Positions 1-42,506 of a DNA stretch of 64,000 nucleotides are shown here, piece by piece. How positions within the stretch are numbered: position 1 is the stretch's first letter; each line of letters begins with the position of its first letter. Below the pieces are notes generated by a model. That model searched no databases, was not told where the DNA came from, and saw nothing but the letters and a program-made list of their open reading frames with translations. Location of the stretch: the IMG/VR virus record IMGVR_UViG_3300010163_001408. One strand, given 5' to 3'. This DNA comes from an uncultured virus (IMG/VR IMGVR_UViG_3300010163_001408). Lineage: Duplodnaviria; Heunggongvirae; Uroviricota; Caudoviricetes. A program made the position numbers and the translations under genes.

Positions 1-1
1 A

Positions 2-175
2 GTAACAAACATGGAGAAAAAATTTGTAACATATGGTAAAGATACAGCAAAAACATTAGAATCAATAAATGACATATACAACGTAGGTTTAAACATAAAG
101 GCAATGTCAAAGAAATTTGGAAATTTACCATTATCCATTACAAAACTTATTAGGCTAATGGGTAATATAAATTAA
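2..175 (+). CDS. Partial (5'-truncated) or short hypothetical protein
   Basis: Open frame from the window edge (ATG at 11) to TAA 173-175; no recognisable motif. Confidence 0.4.
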   Translation, partial: VTNMEKKFVTYGKDTAKTLESINDIYNVGLNIKAMSKKFGNLPLSITKLIRLMGNIN

Positions 176-260
176 ATAAACAAGTCATGAGTACATTAAC
201 AAAATTAAGAATACAAGATATAGAATTAAGGAAAAAATAAATAAAAAAGTGTAAAATTAG

Positions 261-289
261 TTGACAAAATAATAATTATGTGATATTAT
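261..289 (+). promoter_or_regulatory. sigmaA/sigma70-type promoter for the SDR-HisG-PurC operon
   Basis: TTGACA (261-266), 17 nt spacer, TATTAT (284-289), TG extended -10; RBS AGGAG before ATG 335. Confidence 0.8.
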
Positions 290-334
290 AAAAATGTACG
301 AAAGTTGTACTAGTTAATAAAAGGAGAGTAAAAA

Positions 335-1024
335 ATGCAGGCAGTAATAACAGGTTGTAACAGAGGACTTGGTGCTGGTATTGCCAAGGTATTGTTACAA
401 AAGGGTTGGAATGTAACAGGGTTAAACAGAAGTAATACAGTTGATGAAGATTTGCTGCATCATCCTTTATATAAAGATTACATTGTGGATGTATCAAATA
501 AGGAGGATGTAGGATTATGTTGGATGCTTAATCCAATTGACTTACTTGTGTGCAATGCAGGCATAAGAAGATTTGGTAACATTGAAGACTTACCATCTGA
601 AGATTGGGAGAATTCAGTGAACATCAATCTTAACGGCGTATTCTATACAGTTAAGAAATTACTTCCTTTTGTCAAGAAGGTTAAAGGCGACATTATTATC
701 ATAGGATCTCACTCCGAAAAGTACACCTTTGAAAGTGGTGCAGCATATTGTGCAACCAAAGGTGCACTTAGGGAGTTTGCAGAGTGCCTCATGCAGGAAG
801 TAAGGTATGATGATGTAAGAGTATCATATCTGTCACTCGGTTCCATTAAGAATCGTGATCATGGCATTGACGAAGAATGGAAGCTCAAACCAGAAGAAGT
901 AGGAAGAGCAGTATATAGTATAGTGGAACTTCCTAAAAATATAATGATGCCTTATGTGGATATAAGACCAGCAAAGCCATTAAAGGACAGCAAATCTGGA
1001 ATTGAAAAACTGCAATATGTTTAA
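335..1024 (+). CDS. Short-chain dehydrogenase/reductase (candidate CofA/PenB-like reductase)
   Basis: TGCNRGLG Rossmann motif, CNAG, catalytic YCATK (YxxxK); Arg after beta2 (GLNRS) suggests NADPH. Confidence 0.9.
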   Translation: MQAVITGCNRGLGAGIAKVLLQKGWNVTGLNRSNTVDEDLLHHPLYKDYIVDVSNKEDVGLCWMLNPIDLLVCNAGIRRFGNIEDLPSEDWENSVNINLNGVFYTVKKLLPFVKKVKGDIIIIGSHSEKYTFESGAAYCATKGALREFAECLMQEVRYDDVRVSYLSLGSIKNRDHGIDEEWKLKPEEVGRAVYSIVELPKNIMMPYVDIRPAKPLKDSKSGIEKLQYV

Positions 1025-1048
1025 TTAATATTCATAAGGAATAAAAAG

Positions 1049-1255
1049 GTGATGAAAGTAGAAGATTTGATAAATCAATTGATGCCTTACAAAGATTTTG
1101 ATTTAAAAGTAAATGTGCATCTAAACGTAATGGAAGAGGAACTGCAAGAAAGAACATACGGTTTTTCTCATGATGATTTTGAAGGGGAATTAAAACTAGA
1201 TGATATTGGTCATTCTGATAAAGATGTATACATTGGAGTTGAAATAGTAAAATAA
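1049..1255 (+). CDS. Hypothetical small acidic protein
   Basis: ORF with RBS (AAGGA/AAGG) inside the operon. Confidence 0.6.
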   Translation: MMKVEDLINQLMPYKDFDLKVNVHLNVMEEELQERTYGFSHDDFEGELKLDDIGHSDKDVYIGVEIVK

Positions 1256-1271
1256 CAGGAGACAGTAGAAA

Positions 1272-2264
1272 ATGATCAAGAGCAATTATGCAATTAAACT
1301 GGACAAGAATATTGAACCAGTGCATACGTGTAAAGATGGTGATACCATAGTATTAGAGTCAGTGAATGCTTATGGAGAACACTTCTCTAATATGGGTGAA
1401 CTCATGGACTTAATTTCAGGTAAACATGGGGATAAACACCATCATCCTTTAACTGGACCAATTGACATTGAAGGTGCAGAAGAGGGCGACGTAATAGAAA
1501 TTGTAATAAAAGAGATAAACATTGATTTATCTGCTCAGGCATTATCAAAAAGTGCTGGTATATCTCCAATAGAAGTTGAATACTTCGGAGACAGGGCACC
1601 AATTTTAGCAAAATATAATAATACAACAAAAAATATCAAATACATGAACGGAATGCATATTCCATACAGACCCATGCTGGGCATGATTGGTTTGGCACCA
1701 GCAGAAGGTTTCATTAAAACAGGTCATGCAGGTAGAACAGGTGGAAACCTTGATATACCTTTCATTACAGAAGGTGTATCAGTATATATTCCAGTACAGA
1801 CATCTGGTGGAAAGCTGTTTGTAGGAGATGCTCATGCTGCTCAAGGATATGGGGAACTTGGTGGAATTGCTCTTGAGGCATCTGCAATAGTGACATTAGA
1901 AATAGCATTAAAAAAGCCAAGATATATGTTTAACAACATAGTAGTAATTGGTAAGGAACCAATGACAAATAGGCGAGCAATCGGTATTATAGGAGTAGCA
2001 AATTCATTTCAGAACCTAAATGAGGCTGTATGTGATGCATATAAGGGTGCAGTTGATATCATGAGTTACATGCTTCCTACAATCAATAAAAATTATGTAA
2101 GCAATGTAGTAACAGCAATTGGTCATTCAATAAACGGGCAGGCATTTTCTAAAACATCAGAATCAACGAGTATAGTAAATATACTTGAAGATGATATGAA
2201 GGTGCTTAAGAAGGATTCAGGATTTACACTATATTCTGAGTTTAATCAAGTAATGTTTAAATGA
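1272..2264 (+). CDS. Acetamidase/formamidase family protein
   Basis: HPLTGPIDIEGAEEGD, PMLGMIG, GGNLD, LFVGDAHAAQGYGE motifs. Confidence 0.85.
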   Translation: MIKSNYAIKLDKNIEPVHTCKDGDTIVLESVNAYGEHFSNMGELMDLISGKHGDKHHHPLTGPIDIEGAEEGDVIEIVIKEINIDLSAQALSKSAGISPIEVEYFGDRAPILAKYNNTTKNIKYMNGMHIPYRPMLGMIGLAPAEGFIKTGHAGRTGGNLDIPFITEGVSVYIPVQTSGGKLFVGDAHAAQGYGELGGIALEASAIVTLEIALKKPRYMFNNIVVIGKEPMTNRRAIGIIGVANSFQNLNEAVCDAYKGAVDIMSYMLPTINKNYVSNVVTAIGHSINGQAFSKTSESTSIVNILEDDMKVLKKDSGFTLYSEFNQVMFK

Positions 2265-2282
2265 AAATGTGGGAGATTATAT

Positions 2283-3026
2283 ATGAAAAATAATGATGTA
2301 GCCTTTTTTGTACAGTATAGATCAACAGGATCATCAAGCAGAGGTATACAGTCAGGCGGTGTGGTATTAACATTTGATGATATGTTTGACCAAGCATATG
2401 TAACCAAGCTTTTAAGAAACGGATATGCTGAAAGTAAACTGATGTATCAGGTAGGCAGAAACAGTCTACAGGATGTAAAAAGTATGAGAGTTGATGAATT
2501 TGAATCAATATTCAGGGGACACACAGATGATATTAAGTATCTGCTTGGATATAGTGATTTAACATCACCTTTCAGAAAAGAGATATTAACAGCATATGGA
2601 CCTGACTTGTATAGGGAAGTCAAAAAGAGTACAACAGTATACAAGAAGGGTGATATATTCATGGGGTCGGATAATATTAAATACATATATCTGGGTAATT
2701 TTGAATATGTCAATGTATACATTGATAAAGAGTTGGTAGCAGCATATAAAGGTCATTTTTACATGCCCATGTCAGCTGAATTATTAAAAAACACTAATAG
2801 AGAATTTGAAGTGGATACTATATTAGAATACTTCAAACGTGTTAGATTAAGCCCTAAGAAGTTTAGTGCAAACTTCTTGAAAACTAAAAAGAAGGCAGAA
2901 GTAAATAGTGTGATGAACATTGGACATAAAGGTTTAAACTCTGAAGGAGAGTTTAATGTAATATTAAATAGAGATTTCATTCATAATTATGAAAGAAAAC
3001 TTAAAATAGTATATAAGGAGGCATAA
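2283..3026 (+). CDS. Hypothetical protein
   Basis: 247-aa ORF with RBS GGGAG. Confidence 0.7.
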   Translation: MKNNDVAFFVQYRSTGSSSRGIQSGGVVLTFDDMFDQAYVTKLLRNGYAESKLMYQVGRNSLQDVKSMRVDEFESIFRGHTDDIKYLLGYSDLTSPFRKEILTAYGPDLYREVKKSTTVYKKGDIFMGSDNIKYIYLGNFEYVNVYIDKELVAAYKGHFYMPMSAELLKNTNREFEVDTILEYFKRVRLSPKKFSANFLKTKKKAEVNSVMNIGHKGLNSEGEFNVILNRDFIHNYERKLKIVYKEA

Positions 3027-3071
3027 TAGATATAAATAAGACATTTAAATAAACGAAAGGAGACAGTTAAA

Positions 3072-4265
3072 ATGGCAAATAGACCAATTATTAAAATTGG
3101 GGCAGGCAAAGGAAAGTTACTGGGTGTAACCAATCAATATCTGGAATACCTTGGACTTGAAACAATTGACCCTAAAAGCAGGGTGCTGACACACTACAGA
3201 GAAGCAGATAACTACATACTGAAGATCACGTTACTCAGGTGGGAGGATATCAAAGCATATGCAAATAGTTTTGATATGATTATCTTTGGTAGTGATCAGT
3301 GGCTTGAAAATGGTAAGAAATCAATGATTGCATTGAAACATTTTGAGCAGAAAGATTGCAGGTTGAGTTTACTGGTGCCAAAGAGTGAAGCTGATCAGCC
3401 ATTAAGATACTTCCTTGAGAGAAAGATTGCAACAGGATACCCAGAGTTAGCTAAAAGTTACATGGGAGTAAACGAAAACAACATTGTAAAAATGACAGGG
3501 AGTGTAGAAGCAGCAATTGGACTTGACTGGGCACAGAGTATTTTTGACATTGTAGAGAGCGGTGCAACTGCAAGAGAGAATGGACTTGTGGAATACAAGA
3601 CATTTGTAAGGTTTGGTGCTGTGTTGGCAACTTGTAAACCAGAGAAGATTCCTGTATTAAGAGACCTTGGACTTGTAGGGGGCTCGGTAGAAAGAAAGAT
3701 TATTGCATTTGACGGAGTGGATGGAAGTGGAAAGTCATCATTGGCTAAACACTTTGTACAAGAAGGACTTGGGGACAGCAATCCTATTGTGTTAATGTGC
3801 CCATACAGTGGATATGTGGGTACAACTGCAAGATCGTTGCTTGACAATGATAAATATATGGAATGGGCAATGCTGGTGGGTGAAAATCATTGGAGACCTA
3901 CACCTGGCGTAAACATGGTTTATGATAGATCAGTATTAACAAGCTTAACTGAATTGATCAAACATAATGCATTCAGAGGACAAATGCTAGATGCAGTTAA
4001 AGCATTTAGCCCATTACCTCAAGTAATATTTTGGTGCAATGCAGATATTAAAACCCTTACTCATAGGACAGAGTATAGAGGTGTGAAGGATAAGTACGAT
4101 ACTAAAGACTCATTAAAAGAATACAGCAAGCTATATAAAGAAGCAGTAGACTTTGTGAAGTCTGAATTTAACATTAAAGTAATTGAACTTGACACCAGTA
4201 AACCTATTGAGGAAACAATCAAGGAAATAAAGGAGGCACTAAAATGTATAGACTGGGAGAGGTAG
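3072..4265 (+). CDS. hisG: ATP phosphoribosyltransferase (short HisG) fused to a thymidylate-kinase-like NMP kinase
   Basis: N-terminal KGKL, RWEDI, KIATGYP, GSVEAA...IFDIVESGATARENGL (HisG signature); C-terminal IAFDGVDGSGKSS P-loop and YDRS (dTMP kinase family). Confidence 0.85.
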   Translation: MANRPIIKIGAGKGKLLGVTNQYLEYLGLETIDPKSRVLTHYREADNYILKITLLRWEDIKAYANSFDMIIFGSDQWLENGKKSMIALKHFEQKDCRLSLLVPKSEADQPLRYFLERKIATGYPELAKSYMGVNENNIVKMTGSVEAAIGLDWAQSIFDIVESGATARENGLVEYKTFVRFGAVLATCKPEKIPVLRDLGLVGGSVERKIIAFDGVDGSGKSSLAKHFVQEGLGDSNPIVLMCPYSGYVGTTARSLLDNDKYMEWAMLVGENHWRPTPGVNMVYDRSVLTSLTELIKHNAFRGQMLDAVKAFSPLPQVIFWCNADIKTLTHRTEYRGVKDKYDTKDSLKEYSKLYKEAVDFVKSEFNIKVIELDTSKPIEETIKEIKEALKCIDWER

Positions 4266-5002
4266 TAATTGAGGGTAAGTCCAAGAAGTTTTATGACCTT
4301 GGAGATGATAAGTTGTTTATGGTGTTTAAGCCACACTTAAGATCAGTAACTTCAAAGAGAGAAGGCAATATTGAAGGTACAGATACAGAAAGAATGATTG
4401 CAAACAACATGATTTTTAATATGTTAGAGTCAAAGGGAATCAAAACTCACAGAATGGAAAAAGAATTAAGAACCATTGATGGAATGACGGGCATGGTAGT
4501 AAAAAGAACAACTACAGTGCCAATTGAGTTCATCTGTAGATACAGGGCAGCAGGCAGTATTGTAAGGCTGTATCCTAGTATTGTAAAACCTGATATGAAA
4601 TTCAAGAGGCCATTATATAAATATGACCTGAAGCAGGATGTATCAGTAGCAGGTGTGGATGACCCTACATTAAATGAGAGTTACATTATAGGTTTAGAGT
4701 TAATGGAAGAGGATGACTTTGAAAAAGCAAGGGCATACCTTGGGGATATTGGATACCATATGCTAACAACCCTTGACACTGCTGGAATGACACTTGTAGA
4801 TATGAAGATGGAGTTTGGGCATACATCAAGTGGTGAGATTGTACTAATTGATGAGATCAGTCAGGATTGCATCAGAGCAAATGACACGGAAACATGGGAG
4901 CCCGTAACCAAGGATGCATACAGAAATATGAAGTCAGACAGTGAAGTTTTGGCTAAATACAAAGAGTTTAACCAGAGATTATCTAGGGTATTAAATAAGT
5001 AA
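4244..5002 (+). CDS. purC: SAICAR synthetase (PurC) homologue, candidate CofB/PenC-like
   Basis: EGKSKKFY, GIKTH, PIEFICRYRAAGS, DDP, LVDMKMEFG, LIDEISQDCIR, KDAYR motifs; overlaps the hisG fusion by 22 nt. Confidence 0.85.
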   Translation: MYRLGEVVIEGKSKKFYDLGDDKLFMVFKPHLRSVTSKREGNIEGTDTERMIANNMIFNMLESKGIKTHRMEKELRTIDGMTGMVVKRTTTVPIEFICRYRAAGSIVRLYPSIVKPDMKFKRPLYKYDLKQDVSVAGVDDPTLNESYIIGLELMEEDDFEKARAYLGDIGYHMLTTLDTAGMTLVDMKMEFGHTSSGEIVLIDEISQDCIRANDTETWEPVTKDAYRNMKSDSEVLAKYKEFNQRLSRVLNK

Positions 5003-5017
5003 ACATTTGAAATAGTT

Positions 5018-5055
5018 AATGGGGCGCATAAGATTAAGTATGCGCCCCATTTTTA
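5018..5055 (+). terminator. Rho-independent terminator
   Basis: AATGGGGCGCATA / TATGCGCCCCATT stem followed by a T run. Confidence 0.85.
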
Positions 5056-5107
5056 TACATTAGGATATTTAAAATAAATATTTTTAATAAAAGGAGAAGA
5101 CTTAAAC

Positions 5108-5551
5108 ATGAGTATAAGATCAGATGCATTTTTAGGATATTCAGTTGACATAGACAATAAAATGAAAACTTTGGAAGGTAATATTAGGGATGCTTTATTG
5201 TATGATGAAATTAATAAAATTACACCAGAAGATTTAAGAAATTTACATGAATTGAACATAATATCATATTGGAGTGTAAATAAAACATCGACAACAGATA
5301 AAATCATGATAGTATATGATGGAATGTCAGGTGAATATACTAAATTATTCTATATAATAGATTATAGACCAGATGTGGGTATATATGAACAAGGGGCAAT
5401 TGACTTTTTTGAAAGTGTGAAAACATACTTAAATAAGATAGAAACACCTGATAATGTAAAGAAGATGCTTAGTAATGCATATAGATTTATATTTAAAGAA
5501 GAACTGGATACAAATGAAATTCATCTTGAAGCATTTATACATTATACATGA
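5108..5551 (+). CDS. Hypothetical protein
   Basis: 147-aa ORF, RBS AAGGAG. Confidence 0.7.
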   Translation: MSIRSDAFLGYSVDIDNKMKTLEGNIRDALLYDEINKITPEDLRNLHELNIISYWSVNKTSTTDKIMIVYDGMSGEYTKLFYIIDYRPDVGIYEQGAIDFFESVKTYLNKIETPDNVKKMLSNAYRFIFKEELDTNEIHLEAFIHYT

Positions 5552-5604
5552 CACATAGAGTAAATTAAGAACATATCAAAATAGTTTGAAAGGGCATAAA
5601 AATA

Positions 5605-6471
5605 ATGAAAGACTATAATCAAGTAAAGAACAAAATAAATAAAAATATATTCATTGTAATATTTTATATAGCATTAACATTATCATTAGCATATATAACA
5701 TATCATATATTATTAGCAACATCTGGAAGAGAATCAGGACAAAAGAGTTTCTTAGGTTATACTTTTAGAATAGTTGTATCTGGCAGCATGGAACCTACAA
5801 TAAACACCAATGCATTAGCAATAATCAAGATATGTGATATAGACGACATAGAAAAGGACGATCTAGTTTGTTTCAGCTATGGTCAGGACATTATTCATAG
5901 AGTAATAAATAAAAACACTGATGGAACAGTCATATTAAATACTCAAGGTGATGCAAATGAGAGACCAGATGGCATAGAGGTAAACTCTGATATGGTCATT
6001 GGAAAAGTGGTAAAAGTGTTTAATCAAGTTGCACCATTCATTAGTAAATATTCAATATCACCTGGACATATAGATACAATAGCATTAACAAGAAATGTTG
6101 CAATATATTGTGTAATATTTGTTTTAGGAATATATTTAATAATACATATAATAAGGATACTAATAAACATGTTAGTATCAATTATACAAGATAAAAAAGA
6201 ATCAACAAAACAAGATACAATAGAGCAGTATATAATTGATTTAGATGAATTAATACTATATAGAGAGATATTAAAAGATTCATTAGAAAAACAAGTTAGT
6301 AATAATGCTGAACATAGATTTTATTATTTAAGCGGTAAAATTGCAAGAGCAAAAATAAACACAGAATGTAAGAGATTACATAAGAACATAAAAGAATACA
6401 AACATCAGATCAAAAGAGCAATGTTCATAAAAAATCTAGGTAAGATATTAGATGAAAAGACAAACAATTAA
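5605..6471 (+). CDS. sipW: Signal peptidase I, SipW/ER-type (S26), with C-terminal extension
   Basis: N-terminal TM, VVSGSMEP (catalytic Ser), IIHRV (His), TQGDAN..PD, second TM. Confidence 0.8.
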   Translation: MKDYNQVKNKINKNIFIVIFYIALTLSLAYITYHILLATSGRESGQKSFLGYTFRIVVSGSMEPTINTNALAIIKICDIDDIEKDDLVCFSYGQDIIHRVINKNTDGTVILNTQGDANERPDGIEVNSDMVIGKVVKVFNQVAPFISKYSISPGHIDTIALTRNVAIYCVIFVLGIYLIIHIIRILINMLVSIIQDKKESTKQDTIEQYIIDLDELILYREILKDSLEKQVSNNAEHRFYYLSGKIARAKINTECKRLHKNIKEYKHQIKRAMFIKNLGKILDEKTNN

Positions 6472-7558
6472 AAATAAAATGTTACATGCAAAAATGCATA
6501 ATAATCAAATAAAGAAAAAATTAGATTTAAAGGAACTTGGTTATATTATGACAGAGTTAACATGCATTAGTAAAAATAGAAATAACTTTGGTGTATATGG
6601 TAAATACATATTAAAAGATGCAAATGATAATATTATAAAAAAGTCAACAGTGGAACTGATAGATGCAATAAGAAATGGAGAAATAAATGTTGATAATTTG
6701 GAATTAACATCTAAAGGCACATTGAGAAATAAAAAGGATAAATTAAAAATAAAAGATGCAATAATTTTATTTGAGTATATAAAAGATAGAATAATATATG
6801 AGACACATAAGACAGTAGTATTCAAAGATAATACCAATATAGATTTACTAGAACAAAAAGCAAGAGCACTTTATGATAATATATACATTGATAAAATTGA
6901 TGAAGAATTAATTATAATTAAAACATTCGAGAAAATAATAGTAGCAACGCCCAAAAGCAAGTTTGTTATGCTAGATGCAGTTAACTTTTTTAAATGGTCC
7001 ACTTTAAGAGAAATAAACCTAATGAATGTAGATACATCATATTTAATAGATATGGGCTTTATGTTCTATTGTGCTAAAGCAAGTAAAATAAATATAAATA
7101 ATATAAATACTAGCAAAGTAGCATATATGGATCATATGTTTTTTGGATGTAATTTAATTGAGTTAACAATAGGAAATATTGATACAAGTAAAGTAACTGA
7201 TGCAAGTGAAATGTTTGCAGAAAGCAGCATGAACAAGTTAGATCTTAGCAGACTTAACCTAAATAACATTATTATAACAACTAGAATGTTTGAGCATACA
7301 AGAATTAAAGAAATAGACATATCAAATTTTGATCTAACACATACATATTACAATCAATATATGTTTAGAAATTGTAACATAGATATACTAAAAATAGGTA
7401 ACATTGAGATTGATAGTAATTTAATTGATAATTTTAAGATATTCCATAAAGCAAAAATAGGAACACTAATAATCAAAAGTGCACAGGAAGAAACCATACA
7501 ATACCTAAAGCAAAAATTGGGAAGTGATACAACAATAGTATGCAAGCACCAAAAGTAA
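6452..7558 (+). CDS. BspA/DUF285-like leucine-rich repeat protein
   Basis: Repeats of the type NxDTSKVxxMxxMF. Confidence 0.75.
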   Translation: MKRQTIKNKMLHAKMHNNQIKKKLDLKELGYIMTELTCISKNRNNFGVYGKYILKDANDNIIKKSTVELIDAIRNGEINVDNLELTSKGTLRNKKDKLKIKDAIILFEYIKDRIIYETHKTVVFKDNTNIDLLEQKARALYDNIYIDKIDEELIIIKTFEKIIVATPKSKFVMLDAVNFFKWSTLREINLMNVDTSYLIDMGFMFYCAKASKININNINTSKVAYMDHMFFGCNLIELTIGNIDTSKVTDASEMFAESSMNKLDLSRLNLNNIIITTRMFEHTRIKEIDISNFDLTHTYYNQYMFRNCNIDILKIGNIEIDSNLIDNFKIFHKAKIGTLIIKSAQEETIQYLKQKLGSDTTIVCKHQK

Positions 7559-7571
7559 TAAGGTATAGGAG

Positions 7572-8432
7572 ATGTTAAAGATGGAAAGAATAGATGATAG
7601 GGTAATAATAGATCAAGAAACTATAAGCAATATAGCATGTAAGAAACACCTGACATTTAAGAGTAATAAAGACTTTAAAATTATGGAAAATAAAGCAGCT
7701 GTATTAGGTGGAGATACAAGATTTGATTTAATATCACCTGATTTAGGTGCATTAAAAATGAATGATAATATTATATTAATGACAAATAAGAGCAGGATAG
7801 AAGTTTATGATGGATATGATTTATTTAATACTCCACGTATGCATAGTTTTAGTTCAATAAACTTAACTGGATTAGATACTAGCAATATGAAATGTGCAAT
7901 TGAAATGTTTAGTAACATAAAAAATGAAATAATAGGATTGAATAATTTGGATACACATAATGTAGAATGTATGAGAGGAATGTTTTCTAGCATTAAAAGT
8001 GATAAAATAAATTTATCAAACTTTGATGTGTCCAAAGTTATGGATATGCGTTATATGTTTATAAGGTCAACTATAACTGAATTAGACATAAGCAATTTTA
8101 ATATAAATACTTCATCAAAACTAAATTTCATGTTTTATAAAGCACAGATAGGCACTTTAAAGTTGTTTGATATAAAATTGCATATGAATATATCAGATTT
8201 ATTTTCATATACAAACATAGAAACTTTAATATTGAATAAAATAGATATAGAAGAAGACCAAGAGAACTTAAAAGCAGTCCTTGAGGGTGCAAATATAGGT
8301 AAAATAGTCCTACTAGACACAAGTCAGAAAACATTAGAGGGCTTGTACAAAATGTTAATGTCACCTATAAGAGAGGACGGAATAATGCAGACTATTGGTA
8401 ATTTAGATGAAATACTACAACTATATGATTAA
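7572..8432 (+). CDS. BspA/DUF285-like LRR protein (paralogue)
   Basis: LDTSNMK..MF, LDTHNV..M..MF, FDVSKV.DM..MF repeats. Confidence 0.75.
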   Translation: MLKMERIDDRVIIDQETISNIACKKHLTFKSNKDFKIMENKAAVLGGDTRFDLISPDLGALKMNDNIILMTNKSRIEVYDGYDLFNTPRMHSFSSINLTGLDTSNMKCAIEMFSNIKNEIIGLNNLDTHNVECMRGMFSSIKSDKINLSNFDVSKVMDMRYMFIRSTITELDISNFNINTSSKLNFMFYKAQIGTLKLFDIKLHMNISDLFSYTNIETLILNKIDIEEDQENLKAVLEGANIGKIVLLDTSQKTLEGLYKMLMSPIREDGIMQTIGNLDEILQLYD

Positions 8433-8446
8433 AGGGAGACTAAGAA

Positions 8447-9303
8447 ATGGAAAGTAAGGCAGTAATAGACCGTAATATTATAAAAAGTATATTATGCAAA
8501 AAGTATTTAACATTTAAAACAAATGTTGATTTTGATATAATGGCAAATAAAGCACATGCATTAGGTAATGGAATCGAGTTTAAAATCATAAGAGATGACA
8601 TAGGTACATTAGAAATAAATGATAAAATCATTTTAATGACAAACAAAGAAAAATTAATAGCATATGGAAAAGCATTATTTATTAATTGCAGCTCTAAAAA
8701 CTTTTTTTTAAATCTATAGACCTAACTAATTTGGATACTAGTGAAATGACTAGTGCAAATAACATGTTCGGATTTAATACTTACAACATAAATGAAACAA
8801 TGAACATAGATAAATTAGACACACATAATGTAGTAGATATGGAAAAAATGTTTCAATATACAAAATATGATAAGCTAAGTTTATTAGAATTTAATACAAG
8901 CAAGGTCACTAATATGAATGACATGTTCTTTGCATCAAAAATACGAGAACTAGATATTAGTAAATTTAATATAAATAGTATACAAACATTAAAGAATATG
9001 TTTTTTATTTCAACTATAGATACTTTGAAATTATTTGATATACCGTCAGGAATAAATGTTTCAAATATGTTGGCATATTCAAATATAGATAAGCTAATAT
9101 TAGGTAAGATGAACATAGGTCATGATAATCAAGAATTAAAAAGTGTATTTGCAGGAGCAAATATAAACAAAATAATACTAACAGATAAAAGCAAAGATAC
9201 AATAGGTAGTTTACATAAGATGCTAGAATCGACTATAAGAGAAATGGAAGACAAACCAATAATAGGTAATTTTAGCCAAATATCAACACTATGTGGCATT
9301 TAG
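8447..9303 (+). pseudogene. BspA/DUF285-like LRR paralogue frameshifted at a T8 tract
   Basis: ORFs 8447-8719 and 8731-9303 align to the N- and C-parts of 7572-8432; T9 instead of T8 at 8702-8709 restores FKSIDLTNLDTS (cf. FSSINLTGLDTS). Confidence 0.8.
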
Positions 9304-9321
9304 AAAAAGAGGGATAATACA

Positions 9322-10452
9322 ATGAAAGATAAGTATGCAGACATATCTAATTATTACAAGCAAGCACATTTTAATAAACTGGTAAACTACAGAAATAGTA
9401 TAAGAAAAAATCCAGAACTGAAAACACTATTCATAGAAATGACAATAACATGTAACCAGCATTGCAGACATTGTGGAAGTCGATGTGGTGACATTAAGGA
9501 AAAATCGGGGTTGACAGATAATGAAATTTTTGAATGTTTAAAAGAACTTTCTGTAGACATTGCAAGAGATAACAGACCTTTACCATTCTTAGCCATAACA
9601 GGTGGTGAGCCTTTATTAAGAAAGACATTACCAGATTTAATGAAGAAAATACATGATGACCTAGGATATAAATGGGGAATGACAAGTAATGGGCTATTAG
9701 CAACACCTGAAATGTGTCATAGACTAAAAGAAGCTGGCATGTATTCAATAGGGATTAGCCTGGATGGATTAGAAGAAACACATGATTGGTTTAGACAGTC
9801 AAAGGGAAGTTACCAGAAAACACTAGAAAACATTAAGAATTTAGTAAATGAGGGCTTTGGAAATGTAATGGTAACTACAGTAGTTCACAAAAGGAACATA
9901 GGAGAACTTGACAAAATTAAAGAAGTAGTCAAGGGATTAAAAGTGGACACATGGAGAATAATGGGAGTAGACCCTATAGGCAGAACACTGGAAAACAAGG
10001 ATATAATGTTGGACAATAACAGTGACTACAAATACATTATAGATTATATAGTAAACATGAGGGAAAATGACAAAGATATAGATGTAATATATGGATGCAA
10101 TTATTATTTAGGTTTAGACTATGAAAGAAAGGTGAGGCCATGGTATTACTTATGTGGTGCTGGCATAAAGGTAGCAAGCATACAATATAACGGAGACATA
10201 AGTGCTTGCCTAGATATACAAAGAGATGAAAGATTGACCTTTGGAAACATAAGAAAAGATAACCTTTATGACATTTGGAAAAATAAGTTTGAAATATTCA
10301 GAACAGAAAAATCACTAACAAGCAGTAAATGCAAAGATTGTAAAGACAGACTAAATTGTGATGGTAATGGTTGGCATACATGGGATTTTGATAGCAACGA
10401 GCCTAAAATATGTATGAAAGAATTAATAGACTTAAGGGGTGATAACATATGA
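9322..10452 (+). CDS. Radical SAM/SPASM peptide- or protein-modifying enzyme
   Basis: CNQHCRHC (CxxxCxxC), ITGGEPLLR, WGMTSNG, SLDG; SPASM Cys in CGAG...GDISAC...CKDC...C. Confidence 0.9.
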   Translation: MKDKYADISNYYKQAHFNKLVNYRNSIRKNPELKTLFIEMTITCNQHCRHCGSRCGDIKEKSGLTDNEIFECLKELSVDIARDNRPLPFLAITGGEPLLRKTLPDLMKKIHDDLGYKWGMTSNGLLATPEMCHRLKEAGMYSIGISLDGLEETHDWFRQSKGSYQKTLENIKNLVNEGFGNVMVTTVVHKRNIGELDKIKEVVKGLKVDTWRIMGVDPIGRTLENKDIMLDNNSDYKYIIDYIVNMRENDKDIDVIYGCNYYLGLDYERKVRPWYYLCGAGIKVASIQYNGDISACLDIQRDERLTFGNIRKDNLYDIWKNKFEIFRTEKSLTSSKCKDCKDRLNCDGNGWHTWDFDSNEPKICMKELIDLRGDNI

Positions 10453-15104: not shown

Positions 15105-15126
15105 TCAGGTGACATCAGGTGACATA

Positions 15127-15972
15127 ATGAATAATAATAATTATACACACTCACAAAAAGACAACATACAGAAAGAACTAATAGAAAAATTATATAAGAT
15201 GTATGCAATCAAAAATAGAAGTGATTACACTGGAAGTATATTAAAATGTGAGTGTATAATTAATAATGAAAGAGGTATATTTAAGGAACGCTATAGTATG
15301 AGAAGCAAAGACCATATAATGGAACAAATAGTCTTTGAACTATCACAACTATTAGGAGTAAATTGTTGCAAAGCATCATGCAGAAAAGTGAATGACATAT
15401 ATGGATCATTTTCAAGATTTGAGGTTGCAGACATAAATAATGTAGTACCATTAAGTGAATATTTGAATGCATCAGAATTACATGCAGATGACTTATTAGA
15501 AACAATAATAAACAAATCAAGAGGAATCATAAATAATATAGTAGTTAATTTATATCAATATATAATATTTGACTACATTACAGGACAACATGATAGGCAT
15601 TTAGAAAACATATCCATATATAAAAATATGAATAATAGAACAATAGTAATGTATCCATTATATGATAACGGTTTATGTTGTTTTTCAATATATAACAATG
15701 AAGATGCTATAGAGAGGTTACAAAAACGTTTTTATCCATCAAGAATGGGTTCAAGTGATGAAATAATGGATGCAATAATAAAGTACAGACACATTATTTA
15801 TCCAGACAATTTAATTAACATAATTCAGTACAACAATGTAAATAAAGATATAATCATGAATATAATAAATAGGTCAGATAAATATAAACAAATGAAACCA
15901 GATAGAAAAGAAGCAATAGCAGAGTTTATATTAAGTCAAATCAAAGATATACATAATATAAATAGGGGATAA
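15127..15972 (+). CDS. HipA/CtkA-like protein kinase
   Basis: FDYITGQHDRHLENI catalytic loop and YPLYDNG; ATG 15127 preferred over GTG 15109. Confidence 0.75.
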   Translation: MNNNNYTHSQKDNIQKELIEKLYKMYAIKNRSDYTGSILKCECIINNERGIFKERYSMRSKDHIMEQIVFELSQLLGVNCCKASCRKVNDIYGSFSRFEVADINNVVPLSEYLNASELHADDLLETIINKSRGIINNIVVNLYQYIIFDYITGQHDRHLENISIYKNMNNRTIVMYPLYDNGLCCFSIYNNEDAIERLQKRFYPSRMGSSDEIMDAIIKYRHIIYPDNLINIIQYNNVNKDIIMNIINRSDKYKQMKPDRKEAIAEFILSQIKDIHNINRG

Positions 15973-17131: not shown

Positions 17132-17674
17132 ATGATAGTCTACCATGGAAGTAATAGTAACTTTAAGAAACTAAGAATAGCAAAGGAATTAGTTAAACAT
17201 GAATCATCACAACTCAATGAGGGCTTAGGAATTTACTTTTCAACAAATAAGAAAGTGGCAGAAAGCTATGGAAAGTATTTATATACACTTGAGATTAATA
17301 ATAAATACTTTGTAGATTTTAGAAATAAGTCTAAGTGTCAAGCATATATCAGAGGGATAGTATTAGAAATACAACAAAAAACAGACATAGACATACTTAG
17401 ATATATAAACTTAGATACTCTATTGTATTATATACACAGTGGGAATGTAGCAATCAGTGGTACTTGCAGAGAAATTTACTTAATATTAGATTCAGACGAA
17501 TATTTTTATAGCTTGCCTAAGATAAAAATAGATAGAGTATTTCAGATACTCAGGACATATGATAGCAAACACCTATATGCATACATGTTTAACTATCACA
17601 TAAAAGACATAGGCGTAATAAAGAAAGTAACTGATGATATAGTAAAAATAGTAAACAAGGAAATAGTAGGATAA
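17132..17674 (+). CDS. ADP-ribosyltransferase-fold protein (putative)
   Basis: VYHGS...GLGIYFSTN...AESYG, the H-G-S / G-x-Y-F pattern of PARP/ART-like domains. Confidence 0.55.
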   Translation: MIVYHGSNSNFKKLRIAKELVKHESSQLNEGLGIYFSTNKKVAESYGKYLYTLEINNKYFVDFRNKSKCQAYIRGIVLEIQQKTDIDILRYINLDTLLYYIHSGNVAISGTCREIYLILDSDEYFYSLPKIKIDRVFQILRTYDSKHLYAYMFNYHIKDIGVIKKVTDDIVKIVNKEIVG

Positions 17675-18366: not shown

Positions 18367-19836
18367 ATGGTAGAATCATTCAAGCAGATGTGCGAACAAA
18401 ATGGAATAAATTATAACACAGCATTAAAATATAGAAAGAAGCATACAGAATTATCAGATAATCAAGTAATTGATCACTATTTAGCATTACAAATAGTTAA
18501 AAAAGAAGAGTCATTTAGCTCATTATGTAAAAAATACAATATTAATTATAGTGCCGCTAGATATTACAAAAGGAAACATCCAGAATTAAGTAATCAAGAA
18601 ATAATTGATCACTATTTAGCATTGCAAACAGTTAAAAAAGAAGAGACACTTAAGTCATTATGTAAACAACATAATATAAATTATTCTACATTTATTAATT
18701 ATAAACGTAGCCATCCAGAATTAAGTAATCAACAAGTAATTGATCATTATTTAGCACCAAAAGAAGAATCGCTTTGGTCCTTATGTAAACGATACAATAC
18801 TAATCATTATGCTGCCTATTATTATAAAAGGAAATATCCAGAATTAAGTAATCAACAAATAATTAATCACTATTTAGCATTACAAACAGTTAAAAAAGAA
18901 GGATCACTTATGTCATTATGCAAACAATACAATATTAATTATGACATGGCATATAGTTATAAATGTAGGCATCCAAAATTAAGTAATCAAGAAATAATTA
19001 ATCACTATTTAGCATTGCAAACAGTTAAAAAAGAAGAGACACTTAAGTCATTATGTAAACAACATAATATAAATTATAATATAGCAAAAAAATATAAGAA
19101 TAGACATACAGAATTAAATGATCAAGAAGTAATTAATCACTATTTAGCATTACAAACAATTAAAAAAGAAGAGTCATTTAGCTCATTATGTAAGAAATAC
19201 AATATTAACTATGGTAATGCATGGAGTTATAAAAAGAGACATCTAGAACTAAATGATCAGGAAATAATCAATCACTATTTAGTATTACAAAAAGAAGGGG
19301 CACTTAAATCATTATGTAGACAATACGATATAAACTACATTACAGTTCTCCATTATAAAAATAAACACCCAGAATTAAGTGATCAGGAAATAATAAAATA
19401 TTACTCAACAAAACGTTACTCAGCAAAACAAGAGTCTACATTTAGAAGTTTATGTAGGCAATATAACCTTAATTATGGTACAACAATATCATACAGAAAT
19501 AAACATCCAGAACTAAGTGATCAACAAGTAATTGACTATTATTTAGTACCAAAAGAAGAATCACTTCTGTCATTATGCAAACAATACAATGTTAATTATA
19601 GTACTGCACGTTTGTATAAAAATAACCATTTAGAATTAAGCAATCAACAAGTAATTGATTATTATTTAGTACCAAAAGAAGAATCACTTATGTCATTATG
19701 CAAACAATACAATATTAAGTATAGTACTGCAAATTGGTATAAAAATAATCATTCAGAATTAAGTAACAAACAAGTTATTCAACATTTTATACCAAACAGT
19801 TTCATTAATAGTCAAGGAGAACTAATAGTAATATGA
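18367..19836 (+). CDS. Tandem HTH-like repeat protein (11 repeats plus cap)
   Basis: Eleven 41-46 aa units with near-identical scaffolds; ends IPNSFINSQGELIVI. Confidence 0.9.
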   Translation: MVESFKQMCEQNGINYNTALKYRKKHTELSDNQVIDHYLALQIVKKEESFSSLCKKYNINYSAARYYKRKHPELSNQEIIDHYLALQTVKKEETLKSLCKQHNINYSTFINYKRSHPELSNQQVIDHYLAPKEESLWSLCKRYNTNHYAAYYYKRKYPELSNQQIINHYLALQTVKKEGSLMSLCKQYNINYDMAYSYKCRHPKLSNQEIINHYLALQTVKKEETLKSLCKQHNINYNIAKKYKNRHTELNDQEVINHYLALQTIKKEESFSSLCKKYNINYGNAWSYKKRHLELNDQEIINHYLVLQKEGALKSLCRQYDINYITVLHYKNKHPELSDQEIIKYYSTKRYSAKQESTFRSLCRQYNLNYGTTISYRNKHPELSDQQVIDYYLVPKEESLLSLCKQYNVNYSTARLYKNNHLELSNQQVIDYYLVPKEESLMSLCKQYNIKYSTANWYKNNHSELSNKQVIQHFIPNSFINSQGELIVI

Positions 19837-20354
19837 CATTTAAAGATTTATGCATCCAAAATAATATTAATTATAAGACTGCTGATAATTACAGACGGAG
19901 TCATCCAGAATTAAGTGATCAAGAGATAATAAAATATTACTTAGAAAAACAAGGACCTACATTTAGAGGCTTGTGTAAACAAAATAACATAAGATATAGT
20001 ACAGCAATAGCATATAGAAATAACCATCCAGAACTAAGTGATCAACAAGTAATTGATTACTATTTAACACCAAAAGAATCACTTCGATCATTGTGTAAAC
20101 AATACAATGTAAATTACAAAAATGCTTGTTACTATAAGGGTAGACACCCAAAATTAAGTTACCAACAAATAATTGACCATTATTTAGTACCAAAAGAAGA
20201 ATCACTCATGTCATTATGCAAACAATACAATATTAATTATAATAATGCACATGAGTATAAAAGGAATCATACTAATTTAAAAAATATACAAATAATACAA
20301 TATTATATACCAAACAGTTTCATCAATAGTCAAGGAGAATTAATAATAGTTTAG
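19833..20354 (+). CDS. HTH-like repeat protein (4 repeats plus cap)
   Basis: ATGA overlap with the upstream paralogue; same repeat. Confidence 0.85.
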   Translation: MTFKDLCIQNNINYKTADNYRRSHPELSDQEIIKYYLEKQGPTFRGLCKQNNIRYSTAIAYRNNHPELSDQQVIDYYLTPKESLRSLCKQYNVNYKNACYYKGRHPKLSYQQIIDHYLVPKEESLMSLCKQYNINYNNAHEYKRNHTNLKNIQIIQYYIPNSFINSQGELIIV

Positions 20355-20369
20355 GAGGATAACCAGAGA

Positions 20370-20894
20370 ATGGAAGTCAAAAAGAATAAATCCTTTAAAG
20401 AAATATGCAAACAGCATTCAGTAAGCTATGCATCAGCATTACATTATAGAAAAAGACATCCAGAATTATCAGATAATCAAGTAATTGATCATTTTTTAAA
20501 TAAAACAAACACATATTTTACAGAATTGTGCAAACAAAATAATATATCATACTCAGCAGCTTATGCTTATAAGCGTAGGCACCCAAAAGTAAGCAACAAG
20601 AATATAATGAATAAATTTTTAGACCCTGCAAGAATGCTTACAAGATTATGCAAGCAGCATAATATACCATATAAAATGGTTTATAATTATGGATACAGAC
20701 ATCCAGAATTATCAAATGAGCAATTAATAGAATACTTTAAGCATAATCAGTACCCTAGGATTCCATTTAAAACATTATGCAAACAAAACAATGTAAATTA
20801 TACAAATGCATATGCTTATAAACGAAATCATCCTGAATTAACAGATGAACAAATAATTAAAAGATATATAGATAAGAGAGAACAGGAGCATTAA
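20370..20894 (+). CDS. HTH-like repeat protein (4 repeats, no cap)
   Basis: Same repeat; RBS AGGAGG. Confidence 0.85.
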   Translation: MEVKKNKSFKEICKQHSVSYASALHYRKRHPELSDNQVIDHFLNKTNTYFTELCKQNNISYSAAYAYKRRHPKVSNKNIMNKFLDPARMLTRLCKQHNIPYKMVYNYGYRHPELSNEQLIEYFKHNQYPRIPFKTLCKQNNVNYTNAYAYKRNHPELTDEQIIKRYIDKREQEH

Positions 20895-20899
20895 GAGAA

Positions 20900-21082
20900 G
20901 TGACTTTAAAAGAATCATCCAAGCAACAATCACTAAGAAGCTTTTGCAAGCAGCATAATATAAGTTATGCAACACTAATAGGTTATAAGCACAAACATCT
21001 AGATTTAGAGTATATGCAAATCATTCAGCATTATATACCAAACAGTTTCATCAATAATCAAGGAGAATTAATAGTAGTTTAG
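20900..21082 (+). CDS. Single-repeat member plus cap
   Basis: SLRSFCKQHNISY...IPNSFINNQGELIVV; GTG start. Confidence 0.65.
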   Translation: MTLKESSKQQSLRSFCKQHNISYATLIGYKHKHLDLEYMQIIQHYIPNSFINNQGELIVV

Positions 21083-21096
21083 GAGGATAAACTAAG

Positions 21097-21633
21097 ATGA
21101 CCAATAAACACAATAAGACATTTAAAGAAATATGTGAACAACATAATATTAACTATATTACAGCATTACAGCATAGAAGAAAGCATACAGAGTTAACAGA
21201 TGATCAAATAATTGAGTATTATATAATCAAACAAAATGGTGATTATACATTCAAAGATAAATGTAAAAAACATGGGATAGACTACATGAGTGCATGTAAA
21301 TTTTTAAGTAGGCACCCAGAATTAACTAAAGAACAAGTAATAGAACACTATATAGACAAACAAAATAAATATGACACATTTAAGAATTTATGTAAAAACA
21401 ATAACATAACTTTTAAAATTGCAAGAGTATATAAGAGAAGGCATCCAGAATTAACAGATGAACAAATAATTGAGTACTATACAACAAAGTTATCAACAGA
21501 AACAATGCATAGTTTATGTAAGAGATATGGTATAGAAACAACAAAAGTCTATAGATATAGACAGAGACATCCCGAATTAACAGATGAACAAATATTTAAA
21601 AAATACTTAGGTCAACAAAAACATAAGGAGTAA
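21097..21633 (+). CDS. HTH-like repeat protein (4 repeats, no cap)
   Basis: Same repeat; start and RBS region resemble those of 20370. Confidence 0.85.
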   Translation: MTNKHNKTFKEICEQHNINYITALQHRRKHTELTDDQIIEYYIIKQNGDYTFKDKCKKHGIDYMSACKFLSRHPELTKEQVIEHYIDKQNKYDTFKNLCKNNNITFKIARVYKRRHPELTDEQIIEYYTTKLSTETMHSLCKRYGIETTKVYRYRQRHPELTDEQIFKKYLGQQKHKE

Positions 21634-21637
21634 AATT

Positions 21638-22117
21638 ATGAGTCAATCATTCAAGGATTTATGTAAAAAGCATAATATCAAATATCCAGTAGCTTATGAA
21701 TATAAACTAAAACATCCTGAATTAACAGAAGAGCAAGTGATATATTATTACACAACATTAAAGCCGAAAAGTTTAACAAACTTATGTAGAAAATACAATG
21801 TAAAATATTATATAGCATATAAATATAAAAGAAAGCATAAGGATTTAAGTAATCGGGAAGTAATAGAACACATTTTAACAAAACCATTAACTTTAAAAAA
21901 ATTATGCATAGACAATAATACTAATTATAATACAGCAAATTCATATAAAAGAAAGCATCCAGAATTAACTAATGAACAAATAATACAGTTTTATAAAAAT
22001 TATAATACAAGAGATAAGCATAATTTTGCAAACTTGTGTAGAAAATATAATCTGGTTTACTCATCAGCATACGGCTATAGACAAAGACACCCAGATTTAA
22101 CAAATGAACAAATATAG
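21638..22117 (+). CDS. HTH-like repeat protein (4 repeats), last repeat clipped
   Basis: Ends EQI*; removing 2 nt from ATATAG gives EQIVQYYKK*, the normal repeat end. Confidence 0.8.
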   Translation: MSQSFKDLCKKHNIKYPVAYEYKLKHPELTEEQVIYYYTTLKPKSLTNLCRKYNVKYYIAYKYKRKHKDLSNREVIEHILTKPLTLKKLCIDNNTNYNTANSYKRKHPELTNEQIIQFYKNYNTRDKHNFANLCRKYNLVYSSAYGYRQRHPDLTNEQI

Positions 22118-22159
22118 TCCAGTATTATAAAAAATAAATCAAAAGGGCAGGTACAAAAA

Positions 22160-22657
22160 ATGACAAAAGAATTAGAATATTTAAAAGATAAAATAGTACT
22201 ATTCGATGTAGATGGTACATTAATGAGATATGACTTTGGAGCAATAGGAAAATGTTTTACAACTGATGAATGGATTCATCTAAGCACAATATGTAACATA
22301 TATACAGAAAAGGGTCATCCAACATCAATATTTAATGACATTATAAGAGAATTAGGAAACAATGCATGGGTAATAACAGTTTCATTAACATTACATGAGC
22401 AAAGAAACAAAATAGCATTAATTAAGAAAATACATCCAACAATTCCAGAAAATCACATTCTTTTTGTAGGTGACACAAAATATAAAGTACCATACATAGA
22501 AAGTCTAATAGCAAGTCAACAAATATATGAAAATAGCAAAGAACACAAGAAAGTAGTATTAGTGGATGATAAAGATGACTTATTGTTTATGCATCAAGCA
22601 GCATATGGTGATTTAGCACCATCCTTTGAAATAAGATTAGTTTCAGACTTTATTTAA
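22160..22657 (+). CDS. HAD-superfamily hydrolase
   Basis: LFDVDGTL motif I; VLVDD motif IV. Confidence 0.75.
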   Translation: MTKELEYLKDKIVLFDVDGTLMRYDFGAIGKCFTTDEWIHLSTICNIYTEKGHPTSIFNDIIRELGNNAWVITVSLTLHEQRNKIALIKKIHPTIPENHILFVGDTKYKVPYIESLIASQQIYENSKEHKKVVLVDDKDDLLFMHQAAYGDLAPSFEIRLVSDFI

Positions 22658-22682
22658 GTGTCATAATAGAAGAAAATAAATT

Positions 22683-24346: not shown

Positions 24347-24356
24347 GAGGATAAGC

Positions 24357-38263: not shown

Positions 38264-38275
38264 GTAAGATAGTAT

Positions 38276-39784: not shown

Positions 39785-39811
39785 AAACATACATTAAAAA
39801 GAAGGCTTAAC

Positions 39812-41431: not shown

Positions 41432-41445
41432 GGAGACAGGTTAAC

Positions 41446-42456: not shown

Positions 42457-42506
42457 TAAAAAATTACACAGCAGAAATTTGAGTTTAAGAGGGCTTTATA
42501 AAAAAT

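Follow-up and report, generated by a model that had tools for sequence, protein, structure and literature searches.

A conserved SDR, FmdA-like, HisG-kinase and PurC-like cassette on a mobile element: a candidate coformycin/pentostatin-type pathway

The operon and its four enzymes

The window analysed in this work is a 64,000-nt stretch of DNA from an uncultured virus (IMG/VR record IMGVR_UViG_3300010163_001408); it is part of a ~172-kb contig, of which ~108 kb lie outside the analysis. Near the start of the window, positions 261-5056 form a single, tight plus-strand transcription unit with a strong promoter at its start and a strong terminator at its end, and six closely spaced plus-strand open reading frames (ORFs) lie within positions 1-5100. 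Four of the six encode enzymes: a short-chain dehydrogenase/reductase (SDR), an acetamidase/formamidase-family (FmdA-like) protein, an ATP phosphoribosyltransferase (HisG) fused to a kinase, and a divergent homologue of phosphoribosylaminoimidazole-succinocarboxamide (SAICAR) synthetase, PurC. These four enzymes make up a conserved cassette, which may encode a coformycin/pentostatin-type pathway.

The promoter (261-289, plus strand) is of the sigma-70/sigmaA type. Its TTGACA and TATTAT elements are separated by 17 bp, the -10 element is extended by TG, and 11 of the 12 consensus positions match. It scored highest among the 30 promoter-like sites in positions 1-6000, a number that by itself is at shuffle level (shuffle mean, 31.5). 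The intrinsic terminator (5018-5056, plus strand) consists of a 13-bp GC-rich stem (5018-5051) followed by a U run; its folding energy was -22.7 kcal/mol (z -5.7), and none of 200 shuffles was equally stable. A simple terminator scan did not list this stem, but folding against shuffles did support it. We scanned 69 ORFs of the window with Pfam, namely all 68 non-overlapping plus-strand ORFs of at least 60 amino acids and an additional 68-residue ORF, and found no further his or pur family among them, four minus-strand ORFs being outside the scan. The first-pass annotation of this DNA had described an SDR, a HisG homologue and a SAICAR-synthetase homologue in one unit between a sigmaA promoter and a terminator, and had seen no further his or pur gene across the window. 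All of this held, and Pfam confirmed the three families. Its gene list was incomplete, since it had overlooked the FmdA_AmdA-like gene, the kinase part of the HisG protein and two ORFs that belong to no family.

The SDR gene (335-1024, plus strand; PF00106, 116.7 bits) encodes a classical SDR of 229 amino acids, a candidate ketoreductase of the CofA/PenB kind. The catalytic motifs TGCNRGLG, NAG and YCATK are present, and TGCNRGLG together with an NRS motif suggests that the enzyme uses NADPH. The FmdA-like gene (1272-2264, plus strand; PF03069, 107.7 bits) encodes a protein of 330 amino acids of the FmdA_AmdA family, whose nearest solved structure is 2ii1, 'Acetamidase' (E 1.3e-30).

The third enzyme gene (3072-4265, plus strand) encodes, as judged by Pfam, NCBIfam and PHROGs, a short-form HisG joined to a thymidylate-kinase-like P-loop nucleoside monophosphate (NMP) kinase. 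The HisG part matched PF01634 (81.3 bits) and TIGR00070 (88.8; cut-off 75.75) and carries the phosphoribosyl pyrophosphate (PRPP) loop DIVESGAT. The kinase domain (residues 209-394) contains the P-loop GVDGSGKS and a DRS motif and matched phrog_761 (E 1.3e-13). Its PF02223 score was just below the cut-off (26.3 bits; cut-off 27), and the dTMP kinase equivalog was not reached (TIGR00041, 28; cut-off 83.25). The P-loop and DR motifs, together with the missed cut-offs, indicated a kinase of the Tmk fold that is no bona fide Tmk. Among the operon proteins only this kinase domain had matches in PADLOC-DB 2.0 (VakA, E 1.4e-10; mad8, E 6.8e-5). A collection of 5.8 billion proteins contained 182 relatives of the HisG-kinase, nearly all of them two-domain proteins, and three-domain HisG-kinase-PurC fusions were also found (P0146, 659 amino acids; P0156, 668 amino acids).

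The last gene (4244-5002, plus strand), whose start overlaps the HisG-kinase gene by 22 nt, encodes a divergent PurC homologue of 252 amino acids (PF01259, 126.4 bits), a candidate CofB/PenC-like enzyme. Its TIGR00081 score of 101.8 lay far below the cut-off for housekeeping PurC (189.9), and the window offered no pur-gene context. Identity to PurC of E. coli, plasmids and cyanophages is ~30%, and the only PDB structures retrieved for the protein were those of canonical PurC, which has the same fold. The 5.8-billion-protein collection gave 220 relatives at E <= 0.001; among the matches listed (119 besides the protein itself), identities were 56-73%. When a family profile was run against 1.84 billion representatives, three full-length clusters scored 287-392 bits and the scores then dropped to 138 bits, below which the matches merged into ordinary PurC, many of them fused to PurS, PurB or PurH. 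We also built a tree of 62 rows by a quick maximum-likelihood search, in which some long branches were flagged. The PurC-like family formed its own clade of 16 rows (Shimodaira-Hasegawa-like approximate likelihood ratio test, SH-aLRT, 97; stem 0.83), apart from PurC of E. coli, E. faecium, cyanophages and metagenome-assembled genomes (MAGs), and the window protein was nested within this clade with P0002, P0004 and L019 (SH-aLRT 96). The low equivalog score, the separate clade and the gap from 287 to 138 bits bear out the earlier proposal that this homologue differs from housekeeping PurC.

Comparison of 24 members of the PurC-like family with 92 canonical PurC sequences (E. coli numbering) indicated that K11, K13, E90, R94, S100, K123, D125, D129, D175, K177, E179, D191, D196, R199, K211 and R215 are kept in the family; these are the nucleotide (ATP), Mg and ribotide-phosphate residues of PurC. 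Ten conserved PurC positions carry fixed changes (D30P, T33R, A34S, K46T, N95Y, E119K, N159G, P195Q, W201N and D210T), and the canonical D-x-x-T-A motif has become P-x-x-R-S. Human PAICS holds the carboxylates of aspartate via T40, K191, K228 and R232 (PMC9376930). By motif correspondence rather than alignment, the T40 equivalent is Arg in the PurC-like family and the equivalents of K191, K228 and R232 are kept. With three of the four aspartate-binding equivalents conserved, the enzyme could plausibly still use ATP to activate a carboxylate on a ribotide. Thus, the PurC-like protein shares with housekeeping PurC the fold family and the ATP/Mg and ribotide-phosphate residues, but it differs in overall sequence (~30% identity), in falling under the equivalog cut-off, in the ten changed positions and in having no adjoining pur genes.

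Relatives in Clostridia and on Bacillus plasmids

A profile scan yielded 21 related loci, 11 from species genomes and 10 from metagenomes. Of the species-genome loci, nine came from uncultured Clostridia or Clostridium MAGs, one from an 'uncultured bacterium' and one from an archaeon-labelled groundwater MAG. The SDR, FmdA-like, HisG-kinase and PurC-like genes were all present in the same order in 16 of the 21 loci, and the other five (L002, L019, L024, L026 and L028) end at a contig edge where the missing genes would lie. The predicted co-occurrence of these genes was thus found in every locus with enough flanking sequence (16/16). The window SDR is 52-62% identical to its counterparts, the FmdA-like protein 43-46%, the HisG-kinase 35-55% and the PurC-like protein 51-62%; the FmdA-like enzyme, like the SDR, is a conserved cassette member, and the SDR occurs in all 16 complete loci. 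Most cassette copies are chromosomal and lie in low-GC uncultured Clostridia, so the idea of a cassette special to mobile elements was not sustained.

The two remaining ORFs of the window operon had no homologue in the 21 loci. One (1049-1255, plus strand, GTG start) is the 68-residue ORF, which belongs to no family and may not be a gene. The other (2283-3026, plus strand) encodes a 247-residue protein that is particular to this element's copy of the cassette; no family was found for it in Pfam, NCBIfam, PADLOC or PHROGs, and its Atlas model was of low confidence and gave no usable match.

Two further parts are attached to the cassette in the relatives. A HisA-HisI fusion (His_biosynth and PRA-CH) continues the cassette in 14 loci and is usually followed by a 168-residue protein without a family and an NrtR-like regulator; Ham1 occurs in 8 of the 21 loci. 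A protein of 140-157 amino acids is present in 16 loci, three of which (L004, L008 and L022) encode it as a fusion with the PurC-like protein. It has no Pfam family, and a language-model search led to MazG/PRA-PH proteins. Its AlphaFold model (predicted local distance difference test score, 91.9) aligned best with phosphoribosyl-ATP pyrophosphatases, giving Z 8.1, a root-mean-square deviation of 2.3 Å over 85 of 87 residues and 24% identity with 1y6x, and Z 7.9 with 1yvw; Foldseek probabilities were 0.72-0.87 with E-values of ~2. For helical proteins such Z values are no more than middling, and we regard the HisE-like assignment as a supported lead rather than proof. In L001, for instance, the two parts lie at 8736-10185; neither was found in the 64-kb window. 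The earlier suggestion that the element borrows early histidine steps fits these data, as the relatives carry their own HisE-like and HisA-HisI proteins and the window does not.

Four host MAGs were searched for his genes, with the usual incompleteness of MAGs. HisD was found in none of the four, and in all four the sole HisG and the sole strong HisA-type match were the cassette's own, indicating that these steps are dedicated to the cassette pathway. With no other His genes found in the hosts, the chromosomal cassettes encode the histidine pathway only up to phosphoribulosylformimino-5-aminoimidazole-4-carboxamide ribotide (PRFAR), and the hosts do not appear to be histidine makers. A second PurC homologue is present elsewhere in three of the four host MAGs. 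Genomes G003 and G001 contain a further, very divergent PurC-like ORF of 341-344 amino acids (L013:1486-2520, minus strand, and L014:1441-2466, respectively), which is placed, together with the long-type PurC of G004, on a long branch.

At a threshold of E <= 1e-60, passed by members of the PurC-like family only, the PurC-like gene was confined to G001 itself among the genomes sampled from the G001 class (1 of 399) and occurred in 2 of 151 genomes of the G001 family. The cassette is an accessory, patchily spread trait and not core metabolism. We also considered chance pick-up of a host-type housekeeping PurC or HisG and rejected it, given that gene order was kept in 16 of 16 complete loci and that the hosts are without the rest of the His pathway.

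The neighbourhoods of the chromosomal cassettes contained no known defence or anti-defence family and no conserved sensor or effector. In one locus (L006:2390-5023) the cassette is immediately preceded by purA and purB, and in another (L026:533-1822) a weaker adenylosuccinate-synthetase homologue (271 bits, compared with 581) immediately precedes the SDR gene. A conserved protein of ~300 amino acids is encoded directly upstream of the SDR gene at L001:4142-5047, with homologues in L003, L009, L020, L021, L023 and L027; it gave only faint P-loop/kinase hints (AAA_18, Thymidylate_kin; E 0.03-0.35) and may belong to the Clostridial cassette as an additional component. Of the four Clostridia MAGs with the cassette, three also encode a protein of ~835-850 amino acids with a central adenosine-deaminase domain (58-72 bits; L036:9016-11535, L037:9544-12084 on the minus strand, and L038:8196-10694). 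In G003 its gene lies ~12 kb from the cassette, beside genes for a Ham1-like protein and a small RelA/SpoT synthetase. By PADLOC these ~840-residue proteins are not RdrB, and one of the three had a weak CARF-ADA match; that such a protein is a cellular target is speculation.

The first-pass annotation had called for a search of phage and plasmid genomes for co-occurring SDR, HisG and PurC genes. The plasmid records answered with a Bacillus cereus-group variant; phage records held no close relative. By tblastn, PurC-like and FmdA-like genes were adjacent on nine plasmids of Bacillus toyonensis, B. thuringiensis or B. cereus. In the two records inspected, NZ_CP081874.1 (L029:5132-9439) and NZ_CP129006.1 (L039:5164-10377), the gene order is Cof-type HAD-IIB hydrolase, PurC-like, FmdA-like, short HisG and SDR, followed by a major facilitator superfamily (MFS) transporter in the latter, a B. 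cereus record, only. The genes of this cluster carry automatic annotation names only. The window proteins resemble those of the B. toyonensis plasmid cluster in the SDR (43% identity, E 1e-66), FmdA-like (37%), PurC-like (32.5%) and HisG (29%) families, and the K46T and E119K changes are common to both PurC-like proteins. The Bacillus cluster differs in having a short HisG without a kinase, the Cof-type HAD phosphatase, the MFS transporter (one record) and another gene order. A phosphatase and an exporter look like the layout expected of a secreted nucleoside. The four families thus occur in two forms, one with a phosphatase, and in one of the two inspected records an exporter, that may make, dephosphorylate and export its product, and one with a HisG-fused kinase and no exporter that may make the product and keep it phosphorylated. 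The window belongs to the kinase form.

The carrying element

The window has ~30% G+C, and all 68 non-overlapping plus-strand ORFs run in the same direction. It encodes an RNase H, a DEAD-like helicase, a RecJ-like DHH protein, a 5'-3' exonuclease, a PC4-like protein, a dCMP deaminase (63455-63913), a ParA-like ATPase, an actin-like protein and a T2SSE-type ATPase. No capsid, portal, tail or true terminase gene was found in the 64 kb, the 'terminase small subunit' PHROG matches being short helix-turn-helix (HTH) stretches, and no tRNA gene was found there either. The element is clearly a mobile-element-like replicon and may be a phage, a phage-plasmid or a plasmid.

At the DNA level, positions 261-5055 had no match among 50,697 phage and 72,556 plasmid records. 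Searches of the phages by tblastn with the PurC-like protein returned only canonical PurC at ~30% identity (186 records, mostly cyanophages), and those with the HisG-kinase returned 10 records that covered at most 40% of the query and never its kinase part. The 871-residue protein had no match in the phages and the 756-residue helicase one short match. The IMG/VR viral contigs were searched with the PurC-like protein, both as a single sequence and as a profile, with the HisG-kinase and with the 756-residue helicase, and none of these had a relative there.

Several other gene groups of the window were recorded. Four DUF285/BspA-like repeat protein genes are arrayed right after the operon (6452-9303), of which the pair at 8447-8719 and 8731-9303 resembles a single gene split in two. 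Positions 18367-25034 encode several proteins (489, 415 and 225 amino acids) made of many short HTH-like repeats, with fragmentary matches to HTH_Tnp_1, HTH_psq, LysM and 'terminase small subunit' profiles. Within 36614-44480, genes for three paralogous Hef-like homing endonucleases (549, 539 and 657 amino acids; phrog_3339) alternate with the T2SSE-type ATPase gene (38276-39784) and a gene for a 336-residue protein without a family; in Campylobacter CP81-type and jumbo phages, a single genome can have relatives of these paralogues at as many as 12 places. A radical SAM/SPASM enzyme (9322-10452), a HipA_C-like kinase (15109-15972) and a protein with a weak ART-PolyVal-like N-terminus (17132-17674), the latter two below the Pfam cut-off, may be further host-interaction genes.

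A candidate route to a coformycin-type nucleotide

The pentostatin (pen) cluster comprises PenA, which is HisG-like, PenB, an SDR, and PenC, which is SAICAR-synthetase-like (available text of PMC12648386 and PMC13055916), as had been stated at first pass. The adechlorin (ade) cluster recruits HisG and HisA homologues, AdeC being HisG, AdeK HisA and AdeA the SAICAR-synthetase homologue (available text of PMC13055916). Three components expected of a coformycin-type core are present in the cassette: a non-housekeeping PurC homologue, an SDR within the cluster and a dedicated HisG homologue, as in the pentostatin and adechlorin clusters. As far as these partial accounts go, the cassette resembles the pen, coformycin (cof) and ade cores in uniting the same three families in one cluster (PenC/CofB/AdeA, PenB/CofA and PenA/AdeC), in setting its HisG and PurC homologues apart from primary metabolism and, in the Clostridial relatives, in recruiting His-pathway steps as the ade cluster does. 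The hosts of the known clusters are Actinomycetota, whereas those of the cassette are low-GC Bacillota, an archaeon-labelled MAG and a mobile element; the cassette also differs in its conserved FmdA-like amidohydrolase and HisG-fused NMP kinase and in having no adjoining second nucleoside pathway. In Cordyceps militaris, Cns3 unites a nucleoside kinase and HisG in one protein, with the HisG part tied to pentostatin and the kinase reported to make 3'-AMP for cordycepin (available text of PMC8719641). The cassette likewise joins a nucleoside/nucleotide kinase and HisG in a single polypeptide; compared by description, its order, with HisG N-terminal and the kinase C-terminal, is the reverse of that in Cns3. 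Our literature searches, which did not extend to supplements such as Table S3 of PMC13055916, found no description of such a cassette in phages, plasmids, Clostridia or Bacillus. As far as these searches reach, it is undescribed, and it appears to be a variant of the coformycin/pentostatin logic with two extra conserved parts, carried here by a novel mobile element.

We consider a coformycin/pentostatin-type pathway that yields a phosphorylated nucleotide the best reading of the cassette, and a moderately likely one. What was observed is the gene content, order, fusions and conservation, the divergence of the PurC-like protein from PurC and the absence of the remaining His pathway from the hosts, and all the chemical steps are inferred. 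The pathway would branch from the first steps of histidine synthesis, with the window holding the mobile-element copy. HisG would condense PRPP with ATP or dATP, and HisE, HisI and HisA activities, encoded in the Clostridial cassettes and supplied here by the host or by the part of the contig outside the window, would lead to a PRFAR-type intermediate. PRFAR is reportedly the point at which coformycin branches from the histidine pathway, as the 2020 CofB paper of Ren et al. is said to describe. The FmdA-like amidase might first turn the imidazole-4-carboxamide into the carboxylate, ready for ATP activation of the PurC type; the PurC-like enzyme would then close the seven-membered ring of a ring-expanded 1,3-diazepine (8-keto-coformycin-like) nucleotide, the SDR would reduce the 8-keto group, and the fused kinase would phosphorylate the 5'-monophosphate to a di- or triphosphate retained in the cell. 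Such a product would block adenosine-nucleotide deaminases (AMP, ATP or dATP deaminases). Among the classical inhibitors of AMP deaminase is coformycin 5'-phosphate. For the element, the most plausible benefit would be that adenine nucleotide pools are shielded from the deaminases of the host, those of defence systems included.

Several observations weigh against this pathway or against its use by a mobile element. The candidate likeness to CofB, PenC, CofA and PenB is drawn at the level of enzyme families and not from direct sequence comparison. The FmdA-like enzyme is conserved like the others, and our literature search never found a formamidase or acetamidase joined to coformycin or pentostatin, so the product may not be a diazepine; more broadly, neither this enzyme nor the kinase has a counterpart in the available accounts of the pen, cof and ade clusters, and the chemistry may therefore differ. 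With three of the four aspartate-holding residues kept, the PurC-like enzyme could still be a ligase. HisE, HisI and HisA are absent from the scanned ORFs of the window, and all four sequenced relative hosts are without them outside the cassette, so that the pathway could stall in a host of this kind. Most copies are chromosomal and adjoin an NrtR-like regulator, which points to a cellular role. None of the 50,697 phage records contained a close PurC-like relative or a HisG-kinase fusion, and the SDR, FmdA-like, PurC-like, 247-residue and Clostridial accessory proteins had no match in PADLOC.

The two enzymes that lack a described counterpart in the pen, cof and ade clusters would also suit a different modified purine nucleotide, made from a histidine-branch intermediate and serving as a signal, a cofactor-like molecule or a nucleic-acid base of the element rather than as a deaminase inhibitor. 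This is a distinctly less probable alternative, yet one to be reckoned with, as the PurC-like enzyme keeps most ligase residues and the element carries other nucleotide enzymes such as the dCMP deaminase at 63455-63913. Against it, HisG, HisE-like, HisI-HisA, PurC-like and SDR proteins together are what a coformycin route requires, and the chromosomal copies show no DNA-modification or polymerase partner. That the cassette is mere cargo, here as on the Bacillus plasmids, and makes a small molecule for the benefit of the cell, be it a weapon in the form of a nucleoside antibiotic or a protector of a different adenosine analogue, seems rather unlikely. Such a role is suggested by the Bacillus plasmids, where the four families stand with a HAD phosphatase and, on the B. 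cereus plasmid, also with an MFS transporter, and by the described producers, in which pentostatin-type compounds are protectors of a second nucleoside (available text of PMC12648386); the window operon, however, has a kinase in place of a phosphatase or exporter, and no second nucleoside pathway was seen in the 64 kb.

The other two explanations we regard as improbable, and about equally so. As an auxiliary purine route, the cassette would convert ATP into 5-aminoimidazole-4-carboxamide ribotide (AICAR) or inosine monophosphate (IMP) via the His branch, with the FmdA-like enzyme cleaving the formimino or formamido group, and so restore the balance between adenine and guanine nucleotides while the element replicates. 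The small host genomes, the purA and purB genes upstream in L006, the purA-like gene in L026 and Ham1 after the cassette in 8 of 21 loci would agree with this, but the cassette lacks HisF/HisH and PurH, the SDR would have no role, the PurC-like enzyme is distant from functional PurC, and a cassette found in 2 of 151 host-family genomes does not belong to core metabolism. A role in defence or exclusion, on behalf of the element or its host, in which a nucleotide analogue poisons competing phages, would suit an accessory, patchily distributed trait and, by general analogy with antiviral nucleotide analogues, a phosphorylated intracellular product; against it stand enzymes without a PADLOC match and a cassette with no conserved sensor or effector gene beside it.

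Within the coformycin/pentostatin-type reading, a counter-defence role is an attractive possibility. RdrB of RADAR is a deaminase (available text of PMC9994260), and Kongming depends on adenosine deaminase and phage kinases (available text of 10.1101/2024.12.20.629578), the former dependence as stated in the first-pass annotation. From host ATP or dATP and PRPP, the element, if it is a large phage-like one, might make a coformycin-type di- or triphosphate that acts as a transition-state-like inhibitor, a small-molecule counter to the RADAR RdrB, CARF-ADA/Cad1 and Kongming KomA deaminases. The same chemistry would then yield a secreted nucleoside in the case of the Bacillus plasmids and would be an accessory trait of the chromosome in gut Clostridia; this composite proposal is tentative. 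Early expression and inhibition of the RADAR and Kongming deaminases, both proposed at first pass, are inference only.

The Bacillus toyonensis plasmids offer a culturable entry point. If the product is not a coformycin-like nucleotide, the cassette would still be a conserved route from a histidine intermediate to a nucleotide, of which we found no description. If the coformycin/pentostatin-type reading is true, this chemistry, described in Actinomycetota and fungi, would also occur in anaerobic gut Bacillota and an archaeal MAG, on Bacillus plasmids and on a mobile element, and the amidohydrolase and the fused kinase would be candidates for new steps of diazepine formation or tailoring. The cassette would also provide a concrete small-molecule candidate for countering the deaminase-based immune systems described since 2020, and, should the counter-defence role be true, a small-molecule enzyme inhibitor would be made by a multi-step viral pathway.

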